Shown here piece after piece: positions 2,690 to 9,039 of a DNA stretch of 9,039 nucleotides; the stretch's first letter is position 1, and each line of letters begins with the position of its first letter. The stretch is taken from positions 1 to 9,039 of IMG/VR virus record IMGVR_UViG_2645727555_000009, one strand, 5' to 3'. Origin of the DNA: a virus (lineage: Duplodnaviria > Heunggongvirae > Uroviricota > Caudoviricetes). Both the position numbers and the translations under genes were made by a program. The notes beneath the pieces were generated by a model, which had not been told where the DNA came from, did not search any database, and saw nothing but the letters and a program-made list of their open reading frames with translations.

Positions 2690-2982
2690 TGAGCCACCTC
2701 CTGATAAATCACCGCATGCCCCAGTTTCTCCGCCAGTGCCAGCTCTGCCTTAGCGCCCGCTGACCGCTGCCAGCCATTCAGCATGTAAATCGCATCCACA
2801 CAACGAATCATTGCCATGCAAATATCCATGTAGTGCGGCTGTGTCAGCCCGTCCGGAAGTACTGCCGGGTTTAAGACGGTATGCCCTTCCCGTTTCAGTT
2901 CCTCTTCCGCCTTGTGAAACGCCTCACGGTTGAAATTTTCATATCCCGTCATTGGACCGGCAATATAAACTCTCACCCTCAC
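2686..2982 (-). CDS. DUF4406-like protein (nucleoside 2-deoxyribosyltransferase-like fold), about 98 aa
   Basis: Proposed GTG start at 2982, with AGGAGG 8 nt upstream and overlapping the upstream stop. The N-terminal motif VRVYIAGPMTGYENFN…VLNP is what I recall for DUF4406/NDT-like proteins. The provided ORF (to 3051) is probably over-extended at the 5' end. Confidence 0.55.
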   Translation of the reverse strand: MRVRVYIAGPMTGYENFNREAFHKAEEELKREGHTVLNPAVLPDGLTQPHYMDICMAMIRCVDAIYMLNGWQRSAGAKAELALAEKLGHAVIYQEVAQ

Positions 2983-3371
2983 TCCATCACCTCCTGAAAG
3001 TTTCCCCGATAGAACGCCAGCACACGCTGCATAACCTCGCTCTGGCGGCACTCACGACAAATTATGTTCTGCCATCTGTTGTAACGACGTATTTCTCCGT
3101 CAGGTAACTTTCGAATCAGTGTCGGGTCAGCAGCCTTCTCCGGTGTCTTACGCCATACGCGATACGCCTGCTCTGATGGAAATACCCCGCAATCAGAGAG
3201 CCAGACATCACCACAGGCCGCAAGCGCACCAGATAAACGACGAATAGCGGTCTTACTGACACCCGTTTTATCTGCCAGTTGTCGAAAAGTTTCTCGTCCG
3301 CTCAGGCGCACGAATTCCACAATGCGCGCCTTCACTTCTTCCCGCTCTTCCTGTGTAAATACTCTTGCCAT
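2979..3371 (-). CDS. Hypothetical helix-turn-helix protein (about 130 aa)
   Basis: ATG at 3371 preceded by GGAGGT; the longer ORF to 3386 begins with TTG and is less likely. HTH-like segment RETFRQLADKTGVSKTAIRRLSGAL, plus a CxxC near the C-terminus (ICRECRQ). Confidence 0.55.
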   Translation of the reverse strand: MARVFTQEEREEVKARIVEFVRLSGRETFRQLADKTGVSKTAIRRLSGALAACGDVWLSDCGVFPSEQAYRVWRKTPEKAADPTLIRKLPDGEIRRYNRWQNIICRECRQSEVMQRVLAFYRGNFQEVME

Positions 3372-4933: not shown

Positions 4934-5899
4934 TTACCCCCTGAACCCCGGCGGAATTTCGGTATCCGGCTCAGAAATATGATTCACGCAACGCTGTACA
5001 GACGAACGCCCCAGGCGGATAACCAGTTCATCCCATTTTTCGCGAAGCTTTGACGGACTCATGATATTTTTTACCCAGAATGGATCCCGCTGCGCCCGAC
5101 CAAACATTTCACAAATTTGTCTGTGAGTTCTGCCATCCAGCATCCGCATTGTGCGCACGTCGTTGGCCCATGCGGTCCAGTTGGGTTCTTTCGGTCGCGA
5201 AATCTCGCCATCATCGCTGGCGGCCTGCTCGTAAAGACTCACGATTCGTCCCCAGATCCACTGCGCACACGCCAAATCTTCCTGGTTGCCCCACTGGCGT
5301 TTTTTTGCACTGAACACAACCGCGTCAGGGTGTCGGGTTAAAAAATCCTGTTCAACCGTCTGCGGGTCCGGTTGCGAAGCTTCCGGACGAGAAGTGTTTT
5401 TATTCTCTGTAGTAATCTCTGTTGTATTCTCTGTAAGATCATCAGGCCATTTTGACCCGATGACATTGAGTCGTTTTGAACCAATGGAACGTGCCATTTT
5501 GGCCCCTTCCATCGTGTCATTCTGACCTGATGGAGCAGCGCATTTTGACCTGATGGATTCGCTCACTTTGCCACCATTTAAAAGCTCGCTCTCGTAATTA
5601 ATCGTGTAAAAATTAGTCATATCACGCTTTGATTTATTGAGCTTTTCGCAACGCAAAAGCCCCAGCGTTTTCAGACTTGCAAATGCGCGTTTTAACGTTG
5701 ACTCTGACCAGAACGGGAACTGCTCCAGCCATTGTTCTGTTGTGTTATAAATCCAGCGAACACCATCACATTCCATGCCGGAACCGGTATCTCTCAACCA
5801 GTAATGCAACTGCTGCAACACGATGGCTTCGTTCAGACCAATTTTCATCGCCAGCTGCGTGTTTATAACCAGCGGACGTTCAGCAAAAAGGAGCTTCAT
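4934..5899 (-). CDS. Phage replication initiation protein (lambda O-like / YdaU-like), with the origin iterons inside the coding sequence
   Basis: Long ORF upstream of the DnaC-like gene. ATG at 5899 (MKLLFAERP…); the provided ORF extends to a TTG at 5923 that overlaps the ydaT stop. Five iterons lie inside the coding sequence, encoding the repeated IGSK peptide. The C-terminus is the type typically fused to helicase-loader-recruiting initiators. Confidence 0.75.
   Translation of the reverse strand: MKLLFAERPLVINTQLAMKIGLNEAIVLQQLHYWLRDTGSGMECDGVRWIYNTTEQWLEQFPFWSESTLKRAFASLKTLGLLRCEKLNKSKRDMTNFYTINYESELLNGGKVSESIRSKCAAPSGQNDTMEGAKMARSIGSKRLNVIGSKWPDDLTENTTEITTENKNTSRPEASQPDPQTVEQDFLTRHPDAVVFSAKKRQWGNQEDLACAQWIWGRIVSLYEQAASDDGEISRPKEPNWTAWANDVRTMRMLDGRTHRQICEMFGRAQRDPFWVKNIMSPSKLREKWDELVIRLGRSSVQRCVNHISEPDTEIPPGFRG
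5448..5558. repeat. Putative phage replication origin: five iterons (consensus CATTTTGACCTGATGGA) with about 23-bp periodicity, followed by a moderately AT-rich segment (5560..5640)
   Basis: Iteron starts at 5448, 5472, 5495, 5518 and 5541 (spacing 24/23/23/23). The two best copies are CATTCTGACCTGATGGA (5518..5534) and CATTTTGACCTGATGGA (5541..5557). The layout matches a lambda-type origin embedded in the O gene. Confidence 0.7.
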
Positions 5900-5908
5900 C
5901 CCCCCCCC
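5900..5908. repeat. Homopolymeric tract (C9 on plus, G9 on the coding strand) directly abutting the initiator ATG
   Basis: Nine consecutive C at 5900..5908. On the minus strand this is GGGGGGGGG immediately 5' of the ATG at 5899, or inside the coding sequence if the TTG at 5923 is the start. Confidence 0.9.
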
Positions 5909-5919
5909 AGAACACGTTA

Positions 5920-6345
5920 TCAATGCGCCACCACGGCATTTCCCGCCGGACCACCACGATTCATCTGATCGAACAACACGATCGCTGCCGCAACAAACTC
6001 ATCGATATCTTTCACCAGGCGCTCCCGTCGCTCGACAAGCTCCCGGTGATATTCCGAACTGTGGCTGCGCATTCGGGCCACCAGTGGAGGCGGCATTGCT
6101 TTTTCGATCGCCGGTAACAACGCCTGAATTTTTTTAACCGCATCAGGGGTGTCTTTTTCTACCCAGCGGAAAATTTTCTGGGTATTACGAGACAGGGCTT
6201 CCGGATGGCTGTCGTCATACAGTTCAGGAAACGTCATACCCAACTCAAAATAAGCCTGGGTTATTCCAGCTACTGGAACTTTTTCGCCATCAGGACGCGC
6301 CCAGGCATTCATTGCCATGCGGATGTGTTCATGCTTGATTTTCAT
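5920..6345 (-). CDS. ydaT: YdaT-like protein (proposed cII functional analogue of Rac/CP-933P-type prophages), 141 aa
   Basis: Sits second in the rightward operon, directly after the Cro-like gene and before the replication genes. Its size and N-terminus (MKIKHEHIRMAMNAW…) fit my recollection of the YdaT family. Family assignment is from memory. Confidence 0.55.
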   Translation of the reverse strand: MKIKHEHIRMAMNAWARPDGEKVPVAGITQAYFELGMTFPELYDDSHPEALSRNTQKIFRWVEKDTPDAVKKIQALLPAIEKAMPPPLVARMRSHSSEYHRELVERRERLVKDIDEFVAAAIVLFDQMNRGGPAGNAVVAH

Positions 6346-6604
6346 GAATCACCCCCGCCTCTGGTTGTGTGTTAGCCTGATACTCGACAGGTAAGCCGTC
6401 GGTTGGGTTGGGATAAGTACTGCCATCAATCTCGTGCGGAGTTACTATCCAGCCTGTTGCTTCGCACCAGCGTAAAATTTTTTTCCCCGTAAGTTTCGCC
6501 CGTCCGGTAATGACATGGCTTACCATCCCTTGGGTTACCCCAACAATTTCAGCAAAATGCTTCTGAGTTATACCGGAATGATGCAAATATTCTCCAAGAT
6601 TCAT
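6329..6604 (-). CDS. ydaS: Cro-like HTH regulator (YdaS/DicC-type), 91 aa
   Basis: First gene of the rightward operon, divergent from the repressor gene. HTH segment ITQKHFAEIVGVTQGMVSHV; GAGGTGA Shine-Dalgarno 5 nt before the ATG at 6604. Confidence 0.65.
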   Translation of the reverse strand: MNLGEYLHHSGITQKHFAEIVGVTQGMVSHVITGRAKLTGKKILRWCEATGWIVTPHEIDGSTYPNPTDGLPVEYQANTQPEAGVIHENQA

Positions 6605-6615
6605 TGTTCACCTCA

Positions 6616-6628
6616 TGTGATGTCATCA
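6616..6628. promoter_or_regulatory. 13-bp perfect palindrome GTGATG-T-CATCAC in the ydaS leader / transcription start region
   Basis: Perfect dyad symmetry about 12 bp upstream of the ydaS start codon. A candidate operator, possibly for Cro-like or YdaT autoregulation, or a leader hairpin. Confidence 0.4.
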
Positions 6629-6634
6629 CGATCA

Positions 6635-6676
6635 TTAATAGCATTGTTATTTTTAAAAGTAAATAGCATCACTATT
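6635..6676. promoter_or_regulatory. Operator pair (OR-like) in the divergent promoter region: two 17-bp sites of type AATAG-N5-CTATT, centres 25 bp apart
   Basis: Site 1 TAATAGCATTGTTATTT (6635..6651) and site 2 AAATAGCATCACTATTT (6660..6676). Both are internally palindromic and match a third copy at 7759..7775. They overlap candidate minus-strand promoter hexamers: TTGAAA / TTTAAA and TTTACT / TATTAA. Confidence 0.6.
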
Positions 6677-6711
6677 TCAAAGAGATTAATAATCTTATTA
6701 GAATTGAAGGT

Positions 6712-7212
6712 ATGAAAAGAAAATCCCTGTCAGAGATCGACCTGCAAGCCGCCCAGAGACTGAAAGAAATCTGGACGGCGAAAAAAAATCAACTAGGGTT
6801 AACCCAAGAGCGTGCGGCAGAAATTCTGGGATTTTCGACACAGGGAGCTGTAAGCCATTATCTAAATGGTCAGACACCTTTAAATCTTGAGGCTGTTATC
6901 AAGTTCGCAGGGTTGCTGCAAGTTCCTCCCGAGTCAATCAGACCAGATATGGCCGAGTTGTTACAAATTGTAAGGATGTATCCCCAAGAATCTGGGGAGG
7001 ACAATGTTGTCACTATATCTGCAGATATGGAACAATCGGAAAACGAACTTCCGTTTAATATAGACCCCATGGAGCGGGATTTGCTCCAGACGTTCAGGGC
7101 TTTCCCCAAAGAAGATAAAGAGAAAATGCTTAAGGAAATGAAGGAGAAAAAAGAATCAATTGAAGAAATCGTTGCGCGATGGCTAGCTGCGCAAAAGGGT
7201 CGTCGCGCCTAA
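6712..7212 (+). CDS. paaR2: Prophage repressor at the cI position (PaaR2-like HTH_XRE regulator), 166 aa, lacking a LexA/S24 autocleavage domain
   Basis: N-terminal HTH (LGLTQERAAEILGFSTQGAVSHYLNG), divergent from the Cro-like gene. The C-terminus is E/K-rich with no Ser-Lys peptidase motif. It is followed by an antitoxin/toxin pair, as in the O157:H7 paaR2-paaA2-parE2 locus. The gene symbol is a recollection-based assignment. Confidence 0.6.
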   Translation: MKRKSLSEIDLQAAQRLKEIWTAKKNQLGLTQERAAEILGFSTQGAVSHYLNGQTPLNLEAVIKFAGLLQVPPESIRPDMAELLQIVRMYPQESGEDNVVTISADMEQSENELPFNIDPMERDLLQTFRAFPKEDKEKMLKEMKEKKESIEEIVARWLAAQKGRRA

Positions 7213-7229
7213 TCTGAGGAGGTAAAAAC

Positions 7230-7421
7230 ATGAGTACAGCCCTTTCCCCGATAATTTCTGAATTTGAAACAGTCGAACAAGAAAACAGCTATAACGAATG
7301 GTTGCGAACCAAAGTGGCAGCAAGCCTCTCAGATCCCCGTCCTGCAATTCCACATGACGAAGTAATGGCTGAAATGGAAAACCTTATTGCTCAATTAGCT
7401 GCAACGAACAGGAGTGAGTAA
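7230..7421 (+). CDS. paaA2: Small antitoxin of a ParE-type toxin-antitoxin module (PaaA2-like), 63 aa
   Basis: Strong GAGGAGG Shine-Dalgarno; 63 aa, acidic; its stop overlaps the toxin start (TAATG). Size, position and sequence (…SEFETVEQENSYNEWLR…PRPAIPHDEV…) fit my recollection of PaaA2. Confidence 0.6.
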   Translation: MSTALSPIISEFETVEQENSYNEWLRTKVAASLSDPRPAIPHDEVMAEMENLIAQLAATNRSE

Positions 7422-7711
7422 TGCTGCCCATTTTATGGCTACCTTCTGCACGTGATGATTTACGTCAGATCGTAGCCTATATTGCTAAGGAAAACCCTCC
7501 CGCTGCACGTAGACTAAAAATACGCATTGAAACATCAGTTTTGTCACTTACTGAACACCCTTATCTGTACCCACCGAGCGAAAGAGTTCCAAGTCTTCGT
7601 GAGATAGTGACTCATCCTAACTACATAATACTTTACCGAGTAACAGCATCTAACATCGAGATCGTAAATGTAGTTCACTCACGAAGACAGTATCCAAACA
7701 AAACCTGTTAA
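7421..7711 (+). CDS. parE2: ParE/RelE-superfamily toxin (ParE2-like), 96 aa
   Basis: Translationally coupled to the upstream antitoxin by a 1-nt overlap. The sequence has the ParE-family pattern (…LRQIVAYIAKENPPAARRL…YRVTASNIEIVNVVHSRR). Confidence 0.7.
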   Translation: MLPILWLPSARDDLRQIVAYIAKENPPAARRLKIRIETSVLSLTEHPYLYPPSERVPSLREIVTHPNYIILYRVTASNIEIVNVVHSRRQYPNKTC

Positions 7712-7725
7712 TCCTTCCTGTCAAC

Positions 7726-7748
7726 AACCACCTTCGGGTGGTTTTTTT
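7726..7748 (+). terminator. Rho-independent terminator after parE2
   Basis: Stem AACCACC / GGTGGTT with a TTCG loop, followed by a T7 run (7742..7748), 15 nt after the parE2 stop. Confidence 0.75.
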
Positions 7749-7758
7749 CTTGCCACGA

Positions 7759-7801
7759 TAATAGCACTACTATTTACATAATTAAATAGTAGTGGTATTG
7801 T
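7759..7801 (+). promoter_or_regulatory. Operator pair (OL-like) overlapping a candidate pL-like promoter for the ydfA-ydfB-ydfC-dicF operon
   Basis: Site 3 TAATAGCACTACTATTT (7759..7775) and site 4 AAATAGTAGTGGTATTG (7784..7800), centres 25 bp apart as in the OR pair. Candidate -35 TTTACA (7773..7778), 17-bp spacer, -10 TATTGT (7796..7801). Together the sites form a 30-bp palindrome (7765..7794). Confidence 0.55.
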
Positions 7802-7980
7802 TCATTCATCAACCCACCCCGCCCCACAGAACGCCAGGCAATACTTCGAGTTACCCGGCAGTGGTCAGGGGTTAAGTAGCCAGCCCGAGGCGTAAGAACA
7901 TGACGGCAGGGTTCAACTTTAATAACTATGCAGCAGTTTTTTGTTCCGCTACCCCGGCGTTAAGGGGAAATGAGGTCAGC

Positions 7981-8136
7981 ATGGATACTATCGATCTTGG
8001 CAACAACGAATCTCTGGTGTACGGCGTATTTCCAAACCAGGACGGCACGTTCACCGCAATGACGTATACCAAAAGCAAAACGTTTAAAACCGAAAATGGT
8101 GCCCGTCGCTGGCTGGAAAGAAACTCAGGTGAGTGA
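7981..8136 (+). CDS. ydfA: YdfA-like small protein (51 aa), first gene of a dicB-type operon
   Basis: ATG at 7981 with a GAGG Shine-Dalgarno. The 51-aa product (MDTIDLGNNESLVYGVFPNQDGTF…) matches the size and context of Qin-prophage YdfA. The longer ORF from 7900 is probably an artefactual extension. Confidence 0.65.
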   Translation: MDTIDLGNNESLVYGVFPNQDGTFTAMTYTKSKTFKTENGARRWLERNSGE

Positions 8137-8137
8137 T

Positions 8138-8266
8138 ATGGATTTCGACACAATCATGGAAAAGGCTTACGAAGAATACTTCGAAGGCCTTGCCGAAGGC
8201 GAAGAAGCTCTCAGCTTCAGTGAGTTTAAACAGGCGCTTTCCAGTTCGGCAAAATCTAACGGCTGA
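8138..8266 (+). CDS. ydfB: YdfB-like small protein (42 aa)
   Basis: ATG at 8138, 2 nt after the ydfA stop, with an AGGTGA Shine-Dalgarno. Encodes MDFDTIMEKAYEEYFEGLAEGEEALSFSEFKQALSSSAKSNG. It is not in the provided ORF track because it is too short; the size matches YdfB. Confidence 0.55.
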   Translation: MDFDTIMEKAYEEYFEGLAEGEEALSFSEFKQALSSSAKSNG

Positions 8267-8295
8267 TAAGCGAAACAGCACCGCGAGGAATCAGT

Positions 8296-8514
8296 ATGCA
8301 GAAACGAGAACCCGTCATCATCGCGCCAGACTATACCGATGATGAACTTTATGAGTGGATGCGCCAGAAAATTAATGCAGCGCAGGATCTGAAATGGGCT
8401 AATGAAGCCAGGGCTAAGCAGGCTGAAAATCTGTCCGCTCTGGAGCAGGATATCACCAGGCTGGAAAAAGCAGCGGCATTAAGCATTGCCAGAATGATTA
8501 CATACCCGCGTTAA
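8296..8514 (+). CDS. ydfC: YdfC-like protein (72 aa)
   Basis: GAGGA Shine-Dalgarno and ATG at 8296; 72 aa with a coiled-coil-like C-terminus. Position matches ydfC of the dicB operon. Confidence 0.6.
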   Translation: MQKREPVIIAPDYTDDELYEWMRQKINAAQDLKWANEARAKQAENLSALEQDITRLEKAAALSIARMITYPR

Positions 8515-8854
8515 TAGCTAACCAACGAAGCTAAGGTTGGTAATTAAGGAGTTCTCCACGGGTGAGGTGGAGTGCGTGCGCCGGACACGGGTGAGCATCC
8601 GGCACTGACAGTTTACTGAAAGGATATTTCCATGAAAAGTCAGACCATAACGCGAAAGCGCACGGCGAGGTAGCTGGTTCATAGATAACCTGTCGTTAAA
8701 TTTTCGTCGACCGTGCGCTTCCGGTTGTGGCACTCCGCGAAATGGCGCGGCGGTAAGTATGGCGGGGTTATTCCTTCCCCGTTGAGGACATCGGGTTGTC
8801 AGGTTGACCATACGCTTAAGTGACAACCCCGCTGCAACGCCCTCTGTTATCAAT

Positions 8855-8912
8855 TTTCTGGTGACGTTTGGCGGTATCAGTTTTACTCCGTGGCTGCTCT
8901 GCCGCCCTTTTT
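8855..8912 (+). ncRNA. dicF: DicF small RNA (prophage-encoded inhibitor of ftsZ translation) with its intrinsic terminator
   Basis: TTTCTGGTGACGTTTGGCGGTATCAGTTTTACTCCGTGGCTGCTCTGCCGCCCTTTTT matches my recollection of E. coli DicF with about one substitution. A GGCGG…CCGCC terminator stem is followed by a T5 run. It lies downstream of ydfC as in the Qin dicB operon. Confidence 0.8.
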
Positions 8913-9039
8913 AAAGTGAATTTTGTGATGCGGTGAATGCGGCTCAGCGCACGCGGAACAGTTAAAACCAAAAACAGTGTTATGGGTGGATTCTCTGTAT
9001 CCGGCGTTAATTGTTAACTGGTTAACGTCACCTGGAGGC

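Follow-up and report, generated by a model that had tools for sequence, protein, structure and literature searches.

The region at positions 7759-9039 of the window (the whole 9,039-nucleotide stretch analyzed here) is very probably the PL (early-left) operon in a lambdoid prophage of the Qin/CP-933 type, under the control of that prophage's own repressor. Among prophage products that inhibit Escherichia coli cell division, DicF and DicB are the classic examples. They also influence metabolism, phage resistance and EHEC virulence, and many strains carry several dicBF copies per genome. The identity of the repressor that governs each copy sets the timing of its expression and the cross-talk between copies. 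The window appears to add one immunity specificity to this cassette; it combines a CI-like DNA-binding domain with AATAG-N5-CTATT operators and has a ParE-type addiction module embedded in it. The architecture of the operon and the immunity block, like the sequence identities and motif statistics given below, was read directly from the DNA and comprises the following features.

6329-6604, minus strand: 91-aa Cro-like regulator with HTH_3; corresponds in position to lambda Cro, CP-933P YdaS and K-12 DicC
6635-6663, minus strand: PR-like promoter of the Cro-like gene; TTTACT at 6658-6663, 17-nt spacer, TATTAA at 6635-6640
6637-6651, unstranded: candidate OR operator over the PR -10; AATAGCATTGTTATT, one mismatch
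6662-6676, unstranded: candidate OR operator over the PR -35, abutting the PRM -35; AATAGCATCACTATT, perfect
6676-6704, plus strand: PRM-like promoter from the promoter scan; TTCAAA-17-TAGAAT
6712-7212, plus strand: immunity repressor, 166 aa; HTH N-terminal domain and DicA/PaaR2-type C-terminal helical domain
7230-7421, plus strand: PaaA2-family antitoxin, 63 aa (Pfam, PDB and CP-933P comparison)
7421-7711, plus strand: ParE2-family toxin, 96 aa (Pfam, PDB and CP-933P comparison)
7726-7750, plus strand: intrinsic terminator ending the repressor-TA operon; AACCACC-UUCG-GGUGGUU followed by U7
7760-7774, unstranded: candidate OL operator 1 over the PL -35; AATAGCACTACTATT, perfect
7773-7801, plus strand: PL-like promoter serving ydfABC-dicF-dicB; TTTACA-17-TATTGT, extended -10 (TG)
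7785-7799, unstranded: candidate OL operator 2 over the PL -10; AATAGTAGTGGTATT, one mismatch, 25 bp centre-to-centre from operator 1
7810-7942, plus strand: conserved 133-nt 5' operon leader, unannotated and missing from K-12 Qin
7981-8136, plus strand: ydfA (51 aa, DUF1391)
8138-8266, plus strand: ydfB (42 aa)
8296-8514, plus strand: ydfC (72 aa)
8515-8854, plus strand: ydfC-dicF spacer
8855-8912, plus strand: DicF sRNA, 53 nt at 8855-8907, plus terminator hairpin and U-tail (Rfam, K-12 match and fold)
8913-9039, plus strand: DicF-dicB spacer; in relatives dicB starts about 43 nt beyond the window end

The initial annotation of this DNA had proposed a ydfA-ydfB-ydfC layout like that of K-12 Qin, followed by DicF, and both proposals hold. 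The encoded proteins are 100%, 100% and 98.6% identical to K-12 YdfA, YdfB and YdfC, respectively, and the genes are collinear. YdfA matches Pfam DUF1391 with E = 1.7e-28. An alternative ydfA start at the ATG at 7900 (78 aa), as in the annotation of phage Tritos, was rejected in favor of 7981 because the latter has a GAGG Shine-Dalgarno sequence and agrees with K-12 and RefSeq. The alignment to the K-12 dicB operon that the annotation had called for is ungapped, with 98.3% DNA identity over 7943-9039 (19 differences in 1097 nt). This homology begins 38 nt 5' of ydfA and reaches the window end. The spacer between ydfC and dicF is 98% identical to K-12, where it is part of the precursor processed by RNase III and by RNase E, and it is probably processed by the two enzymes here as in K-12 (PMC10448788).

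Rfam model RF00039 was used to identify DicF. Its full length (1-52) matches 8856-8907 on the plus strand with 75 bits (gathering score, 48) and E = 1.4e-15. The 53-nt K-12 dicF matches 8855-8907 at 52 positions, including the 3' region that pairs with ftsZ. The sole difference is a G at 8893 in place of the K-12 A, which converts a U-A stem pair to U-G and leaves the fold unchanged. An effect of this A39G substitution on ftsZ pairing was considered and dropped; the crude duplex energy is unchanged at -38.5 kcal/mol. A permissive Rfam search of 7700-9039 found DicF alone, and matches to RalA and isrK at 17 bits are noise. The GGAGG at 9034-9038 had been read as the ribosome-binding site of dicB, a reading that fails: in the nearest genome the dicB ATG falls at window-equivalent position 9082, 44 nt 3' of GGAGG, with a separate GAGGA lying 7 nt upstream of the ATG. 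Both dicB and ydfD lie downstream of dicF in all four close relatives inspected, and the nearest genomes have dicB, ydfD, an exonuclease gene, xis and int after the DicF region.

The immunity-specific block spans 6346-7809 and has sharp edges, with flanks at least 95% identical. It contains the Cro-like gene with PR, OR and PRM, the 166-aa repressor gene, the PaaA2/ParE2-like genes, a strong terminator and the PL-like promoter. The regulator gene opens the repressor-TA operon in the cI position and is divergent from the ydaS/ydaT-like genes (ORF map and CP-933P comparison). Residues 2-90 of the repressor match the lambda CI structures PDB 1lmb and 7jvt with E values near 1e-9 (1.5e-9 for 1lmb) and are 52% identical to an Stx2-phage CI. 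Over its full length the protein is 36% identical to the Rac-SA53 'DicA' (alignment of 151 aa). The C-terminal 44 residues (123-166) share 54.5% identity with the C terminus of PaaR2, and the C-terminal domain matches positions 75-130 of the DicA model NF007257 (NCBIfam) with E = 1.5e-7. The N-terminal 120 residues, DNA-binding domain included, gave no alignment to CP-933P PaaR2. HTH_3 is the single Pfam match in the repressor, and Peptidase_S24 was not found in the Pfam search. The earlier label 'PaaR2-like' thus fits the C-terminal 44 residues and does not extend to the lambda/Stx-CI-like DNA-binding domain or to the operators, which are not of the CP-933P type. The earlier statement that the operon is driven from this region rather than from dicA is right in that dicA is absent and needs qualification in that the repressor has a C-terminal domain of the DicA family. 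It is conceivable that the repressor is a natural chimera, a CI-type DNA-binding domain joined to a DicA/PaaR2-type oligomerization domain, and that it defines a new heteroimmune group.

The Cro-like protein matches Pfam HTH_3 with E = 9.4e-6, is just 27% identical to CP-933P YdaS and has no match to K-12 DicC. The N-terminal part of its gene is immunity-specific, with 40-42% DNA identity to other immunity types. The window also encodes a YdaT that is 86% identical to CP-933P YdaT. The toxin-antitoxin pair noted earlier in the immunity region is of the PaaA2/ParE2 family by Pfam, PDB and CP-933P identity. The antitoxin matches PaaA2 (PF21217, E = 1e-21; PDB 3zbe, E = 2e-22) and is 70% identical to CP-933P PaaA2. 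The toxin matches ParE_toxin (PF05016, E = 6.6e-18) and ParE2 (PDB 5cw7_B, E = 5e-36) and is 65% identical to CP-933P ParE2. The pair may correspond to the PaaR1/PaaA1/ParE1 (or ParE3) paralogue of Hallez et al. 2010.

AATAG-N5-CTATT sites had been proposed as the operators, and their number and placement support this. Four sites, starting at 6637 (one mismatch), 6662 (none), 7760 (none) and 7785 (one mismatch), were found where 0.21 would be expected, a count that no shuffle out of 200 attained. The sites occur as pairs at OR and OL only, 25 bp apart, and are placed equally with respect to the PR and PL hexamers. A third operator at 6685-6699 was kept only as a weak candidate because it has three mismatches and many such sites arise by chance.

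The promoter proposed at 7773-7801 is present, and this part of the window aligns with the PL region of CP-933P such that the promoter occupies the position of the validated PL933P. Its -10 hexamer, TATTGT, is weak. The promoter scan found five promoters compared to 4.0 expected in shuffles, an absence of enrichment that makes the scan alone no evidence; the case for PL is operator placement together with homology to PL933P. The putative PR promoter at 6635-6663 was read from the sequence; set beside PL, it shows the PL layout. The repressor ATG lies 8 nt past the PRM -10, so the repressor mRNA is probably leaderless, like those of cI and paaR2. A leaderless paaR2 mRNA is described in CP-933P (PMC8630535).

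A canonical intrinsic terminator 3' of parE separates the TA operon from PL. It has a 7-bp GC-rich stem, a UUCG loop, a U7 tail and a folding energy of -10.4 kcal/mol, and 6 of 200 shuffles fold equally well. This terminator argues against expression of ydfABC-DicF mainly by read-through from PRM, which would be constitutive in the lysogen and would make the palindromes at 7760-7799 incidental. Such read-through would suit the common strand of all the genes, the parE-ydfA gap of just 269 nt and the build-up of DicF in stationary-phase K-12 despite a DicA-repressed dicBp (PMC10448788), but it is highly unlikely: the palindromes cover a -35/-10 pair exactly and copy the OR arrangement, PL933P, the homologous promoter, is repressible and works autonomously (PMC8630535), and constitutive dicBF expression is toxic (PMC5069750).

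We also give little credence to the palindromes being operators for the PaaA2-ParE2 complex or for the Cro-like protein alone instead of the 166-aa repressor. PaaA2 is without a DNA-binding domain, and the regulators of CP-933P are PaaR2, YdaS and YdaT (PMC8630535). Type II TA complexes usually autoregulate through palindromes, and Cro-type proteins use the operators of their repressors, but the motif tracks the clade of the repressor N-terminal domain, including an Stx2 phage and Rac-SA53 that have no TA pair. A decayed prophage with a dead switch, relic promoter and operators and a cassette that is silent or under host control only is barely credible: many dicBF-bearing prophages are cryptic (PMC10448788, PMC5069750) and related loci contain IS insertions and pseudogenes, but the ORFs of this immunity block are all intact in the window (ORF map), the module is 98.8-99.4% conserved between unrelated strains, the operators are perfect or one mismatch away, and the nearest genomes have an intact arm through xis and int.

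Control of PL by the 166-aa repressor is the preferred reading; repressor-operator binding, transcript start, RNA processing and induction mode in this prophage are inferred. In the lysogen, the repressor would occupy the two 15-bp palindromes over the -35 and -10 hexamers and turn PL off. It would also occupy the two like sites at OR, 1.1 kb away, where it would repress the Cro-like gene and probably activate its own leaderless transcript. By analogy, the Cro-like protein is presumably a competitor for the same sites, which would create a bistable switch. The K-12 dicBp is under bistable control that is relieved by an antirepressor (PMC10448788). The PaaA2/ParE2-type pair would be co-transcribed with the repressor gene from the slot of lambda rexAB, in an operon predicted to end just before OL/PL. 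Since the repressor is without a LexA-type cleavage domain, an antirepressor or stochastic switching would be expected rather than RecA-mediated self-cleavage. On loss of repression, the predicted sigma-70 promoter at 7773-7801 would give a polycistronic RNA, starting near 7808, that covers a leader of about 170 nt, ydfA, ydfB, ydfC, the long spacer and DicF, with read-through of the DicF terminator into dicB and ydfD past the window end. RNase III and RNase E would release the 53-nt DicF; in K-12, DicF arises solely from the dicBp transcript via processing by these two enzymes (PMC10448788). Released DicF would block translation of ftsZ, and DicB with MinC would block Z-ring assembly.

The leader of about 170 nt could be an added control layer on the operon. 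Its conserved 133-nt part at 7810-7942 shows 95-96% identity downstream of PL regions that are themselves unrelated and is found in 3,700 of 5,426 E. coli genomes, in none of which it is annotated. The start of this segment is C-rich (C/G 2.5). Folding of 7808-7985 gave a structure less stable than the shuffled controls (z = +1.3), and a structured put- or riboswitch-like element is therefore unsupported. We consider it unlikely that the leader is a cis-acting dicBF control element such as an antitermination signal or an attenuator that is C-rich and loads Rho. Such an element would stop leaky PL transcripts before the toxic DicF/DicB genes and would constitute a layer of control invisible to K-12 studies.

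The CI of Stx2 phage Lyz12581Vzw and the Rac-SA53 'DicA' are 52-54% identical to the window repressor in the N-terminal domain, and AATAG-N5-CTAT(T/C) lies between cro and cI in both. The Rac-SA53 protein shares the two-domain build of the window repressor, whereas the Stx2-phage CI, which is LexA-type, has a C-terminal peptidase domain. The TA pair is absent from both loci, as is dicBF directly downstream.

The topology of the window is that of the lambda immunity region, which runs cro-PR/OR/PRM-cI-rexA-rexB-timm-OL/PL-N. In its N-terminal domain the repressor has homology to CI residues 1-92, and two loci separated by about 1.1 kb each have paired operators, 25 bp apart, over promoter hexamers. 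The rexAB slot is filled by an accessory 'moron' pair, and the repressor mRNA is probably leaderless. Unlike lambda, the window repressor has no S24 self-cleavage domain, and RecA-dependent SOS induction would not be expected. Each site has two clear operators in place of the three in lambda, neither an N gene nor a nut site was recognized, and the PL operon encodes division inhibitors.

K-12 Qin likewise has a repressor gene that lies upstream in the orientation of the operon, a Cro-like gene that diverges from it, and operators both at OR and at the promoter of the operon, and the two repressors share a DicA-family C-terminal domain without a peptidase domain. In the window, dicA, dicC, dicBp and the TGTTAGTCATnnCTAA operators are replaced: upstream of 7943 there is no homology to the first three, and the TGTTAGTCATnnCTAA repeats are absent. 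A TA pair and a terminator separate the operon promoter from the repressor gene, and the 133-nt leader is present, in contrast to Qin. The replacement of dicA by a TA-carrying repressor module is ordinary module shuffling among lambda-like prophages.

The swapped-repressor arrangement is not new and is already documented for the sister prophage CP-933P (PMC8630535). The CP-933P locus (Sp12, E. coli O157:H7) was located via a primer from Table S3 of PMC8630535 and has the order paaR2-paaA2-parE2, PL933P, leader, ydfC, DicF, dicB. Both prophages share the gene order ydaT, cro-like, OR, repressor, paaA, parE, PL/OL, leader, ydfC, DicF and, as predicted from relatives for the prophage of the window, dicB. 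PL933P is repressed about 100-fold by PaaR2 and YdaS (Jurenas et al. 2021, PMC8630535), and the repeats footprinted in CP-933P belong to the GTTTAGTAA type (PMC8630535) as opposed to AATAG-N5-CTATT. The CP-933P repressor N-terminal domain is unrelated to that of the window, the Cro-like proteins have diverged to the 27% identity given above, and CP-933P has ECs_2282 in place of ydfA and ydfB.

Four immunity types, those of the window, SHP24, CP-933P and K-12 Qin, were compared. All precede the same dicBF cassette, and each has a private repeat at OR and OL: AATAG-N5-CTATT in the window, ACAATnAAAAACTGT... in SHP24, TTTAGTGnTTAnTAAA in CP-933P and TGTTAGTCATnnCTAA in K-12 Qin. Together with the motif match between OR and OL and the absence of dicA, dicC and dicBp, this comparison supports the earlier suggestion that the operon is under a different immunity specificity, as far as sequence can indicate. 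The variant in the window is present in 72 of 5,426 complete E. coli genomes and is itself new and uncharacterized, although of an already known sort. Comparison of immunity types helps annotation and the prediction of heteroimmunity and leaves current understanding unchanged. Across the four types, OR, OL and the repressor N-terminal domain swap jointly, and the division-inhibitor cassette is constant.

In the window, the ydfA-ydfB-ydfC-DicF division-inhibitor cassette known from the K-12 prophage Qin is preceded by a complete lambda-style immunity region in place of dicA. The features are as follows.

Immunity region, leader and cassette (window coordinates)
5920-6345, leftward: YdaT-family protein, 86% identical to YdaT of CP-933P (E. 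coli O157:H7)
6329-6604 (-), transcribed leftward: Cro-like HTH protein
6712-7212, rightward: repressor, 166 aa
7230-7421, rightward: PaaA2-family antitoxin (Pfam PF21217, E = 1e-21; PDB 3zbe)
7421-7711, rightward: ParE-family toxin (PF05016; PDB 5cw7_B, E = 5e-36)
7726-7750: canonical intrinsic terminator ending the repressor-toxin-antitoxin (TA) operon (7-bp stem, UUCG loop, U7, -10.4 kcal/mol)
7773-7801, rightward: promoter TTTACA-17-TATTGT with a TG extended -10, directly 3′ of the terminator (PL)
7810-7942 (+): 133-nt leader, CAACCCACCCCGCCCCACAG..., between PL and ydfA
7981-8136 (+): ydfA, product 100% identical to K-12 YdfA, Pfam DUF1391 match
8138-8266 (+): ydfB, product 100% identical to K-12 YdfB
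8296-8514 (+): ydfC, product 98.6% identical to K-12 YdfC

A BLAST comparison made directly with K-12 Qin aligned 7943-9039 without gaps at 98.3% identity (19 differences) and returned no similarity 5′ of 7943. DicF was detected at 8856-8907 (+) by Rfam with 75 bits against a gathering score of 48 (E = 1.4e-15). Positions 8855-8907 differ from the 53-nt K-12 dicF only at 8893, where A to G converts a U-A stem pair to U-G and leaves the fold and a crude ftsZ duplex prediction unaltered. These results confirm the Qin-like gene order and the DicF gene proposed in the initial annotation, which had also read GGAGG at 9034-9038 as a sign that dicB probably starts just beyond the window. The window does not contain dicB, and this GGAGG is not its ribosome-binding site, because the dicB ATG of the nearest genome lies 43 nt past the end of the window, with a separate GAGGA 7 nt before it. 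In every close relative inspected, dicB, ydfD, exonuclease, xis and int come next, and the segment is the early-left arm of a lambdoid prophage. The cassette is present in 4,746 of 5,426 complete E. coli genomes, frequently in multiple copies.

The sequence AATAG-N5-CTATT, previously put forward as the operator, occurs four times with at most one mismatch against 0.21 expected, a number attained in 0 of 200 shuffles. The occurrences fall into two pairs whose members are 25 bp apart, one in the cro-repressor intergenic region (OR; 6637/6662) and one at the downstream promoter (OL; 7760/7785). Side-by-side comparison of the leftward OR promoter (-35 TTTACT, -10 TATTAA) with the rightward 7773-7801 promoter shows the same build: one palindrome extends into the -35 (...CTATTTAC) and the other spans the -10. 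A candidate PRM, TTCAAA-17-TAGAAT (6676-6704), adjoins the 6662 site. Its 3′ end is 8 nt before the repressor ATG, which suggests a leaderless repressor mRNA, as demonstrated for lambda cI and, in PMC8630535, for paaR2. Between the putative PRM -35 and -10, at a distance of 23 bp from the 6662 site, there is a weak third operator candidate, ATTAATAATCTTATT (6685-6699; 3 mismatches), which is also part of the palindrome TAATAA-TC-TTATTA. This candidate may correspond to OR3 or may be a chance match. The inverted repeat TTGATTTTCATGAATCAC (6335-6352), where the cro-like gene and ydaT meet, is 1 base off the published YdaT site TTGATT-N6-AATCAA and is likely a PRE-type (CII-like) control site.

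The repressor was compared with PaaR2 using the CP-933P locus, retrieved from an O157:H7 genome via a primer in Table S3 of Jurenas et al. 2021. Only residues 123-166 align with PaaR2 (54.5% identity). The DicA family model NCBIfam NF007257 also matches this C-terminal segment (model positions 75-130, E = 1.5e-7), which is 27% identical to K-12 DicA. The N-terminal domain shares homology with the DNA-binding domain of lambda CI (PDB 1lmb, 7jvt; E about 1e-9) and is 52% identical to that of the LexA-type CI proteins of Stx2 phages. The "PaaR2-like" description of the repressor holds for its C terminus and fails for the DNA-binding domain. The alignment with Rac-SA53 "DicA" spans the whole protein at 36%, no peptidase S24 domain was found in the 166-aa protein, and no sequenced phage in the collection searched encodes the full-length protein. 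The Stx2 phage and Rac-SA53, whose repressors have this N-terminal domain, carry AATAG-N5-CTAT(T/C) between cro and cI, tying the motif to the clade of the CI-like DNA-binding domain.

The comparison was extended to four loci that share the downstream cassette. Each has a private repeat at OR and directly 5′ of the dicBF (division-inhibitor) leader: AATAG-N5-CTATT in the window, ACAATnAAAAACTGT-N-ACAGTTTTTnATTGT in E. coli strain SHP24, TTTAGTGnTTAnTAAA in CP-933P (equivalent to the footprinted GTTTAGTAA-type repeats) and TGTTAGTCATnnCTAA in K-12 Qin. This supports a different immunity specificity for the cassette here, as the initial annotation proposed.

Identity of the window to SHP24, by segment
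ydaT: 99.8%
Cro N-terminus, OR, repressor N-terminal domain and linker: 29-42%
Repressor C-terminal domain, paaA and parE: 72-84%
Terminator and OL/PL: 40-50%
7810 onward: 95-99%

From these identities, the exchangeable immunity block is 6346-7809, with the TA pair inside and the division-inhibitor cassette constant. Phage Tritos has yet another cI and enters the common sequence at 7812. The SHP24 locus carries a third immunity variant, in which the repressor has 133 aa and a palindrome of its own stands at both OR and OL (9131-9169 and 10166-10204 of that locus); elsewhere the locus is 96-99% identical to the window. It illustrates cleanly, in a natural case, how the repressor N-terminal domain is swapped as a set with OR and OL.

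The leader is 95-96% conserved behind the unrelated PL/immunity regions of the window, CP-933P, SHP24 and Tritos, and is absent from K-12 Qin. It occurs in 3,700 of 5,426 E. coli genomes and is annotated in none. Its start is the region's most C-rich, G-poor stretch (C/G 2.5, about the 95th percentile within the window), and the leader shows no excess structure. One possibility, weakly indicated, is a Rho-loading attenuator.

The 7773-7801 promoter aligns with the position of PL933P, the CP-933P promoter, which when cloned is repressed ~100-fold by PaaR2 and by YdaS (PMC8630535). In K-12, dicBp is the sole operon promoter and is repressed by DicA; derepression occurs through the antirepressor Rem or stochastic DicC-dependent switching, and RNase III (190-nt species) and RNase E (53 nt) cut DicF out of the polycistronic transcript (PMC10448788). 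By homology and architecture, the most likely sequence of events in a lysogen would begin with the 166-aa repressor holding the OL and OR pairs and keeping PL off, possibly looping the 1.1 kb between them because PaaR2 octamerises (PMC8630535). The repressor-TA operon would be transcribed from PRM and halt at the terminator. Cassette expression by read-through from PRM is unlikely because this terminator intervenes and the homologous promoter is autonomous. That the TA complex, in place of the repressor, binds the palindromes is also unlikely since PaaA2 has no DNA-binding domain (PMC8630535) and the motif is found in TA-less relatives. Every ORF is intact and conservation of the module between strains is 98.8-99.4%, which makes a decayed, non-functional switch unlikely. 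Under repressor control, loss of repression would activate PL and express ydfABC-DicF, with DicB made via read-through; DicF would stop ftsZ translation and DicB Z-ring assembly. RecA-mediated induction would not be expected because the repressor has no cleavage domain.

Elsewhere in the window, a hokD/sok type I toxin-antitoxin locus (68-393, -; sok 112 bits at 218-393 by Rfam, Hok ORF end 68) is 98.7% identical to K-12 Qin hokD and here has no adjacent relBE. Two ORFs, 515-859 and 1373-1798, are paralogues, since each matches phrog_660. A ~26-nt sequence (…CTCCTTTGATGCGAATG…) at 1369-1394 and 2256-2281 marks two leftward-operon gene junctions and is also in CP-933P; these repeats look like the short conserved junctions where lambdoid modules recombine. 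The replication arm carries two accessory genes (2686-2967 and 2979-3371, both -), one DUF4406/nucleoside 2-deoxyribosyltransferase-like (phrog_355) and the other a Ren-like exclusion protein (phrog_142, DUF977). A nine-C run (5900-5908; G9 on the coding strand) between ydaT and O, directly 5′ of the O-like replication gene ATG (5899), may be that gene's ribosome-binding site and could be prone to slippage.

Arrangements of this kind are already known. In CP-933P, paaR2-paaA2-parE2 is followed by PL933P, the leader seen in the window, ydfC, DicF, dicB and ydfD. That prophage keeps leader, ydfC, DicF and dicB but has an oppositely oriented ECs_2282-family zinc-binding gene (5426-5626 of that locus) instead of ydfA/ydfB, so PL933P transcripts would cross that gene antisense. 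Division inhibitors (kil and/or dicB) lie 3′ of cI or paaR2 according to Jurenas et al. (PMC8630535), and dicBF is recorded in CP-933O, CP-933M and CP-933P (Balasubramanian et al. 2016). The exact module (6605-8140) is full-length in 72 genomes, where the repressor has no annotation beyond "helix-turn-helix domain-containing protein". The window system is thus an uncharacterised example of a kind that is well understood, and its immunity specificity is new.
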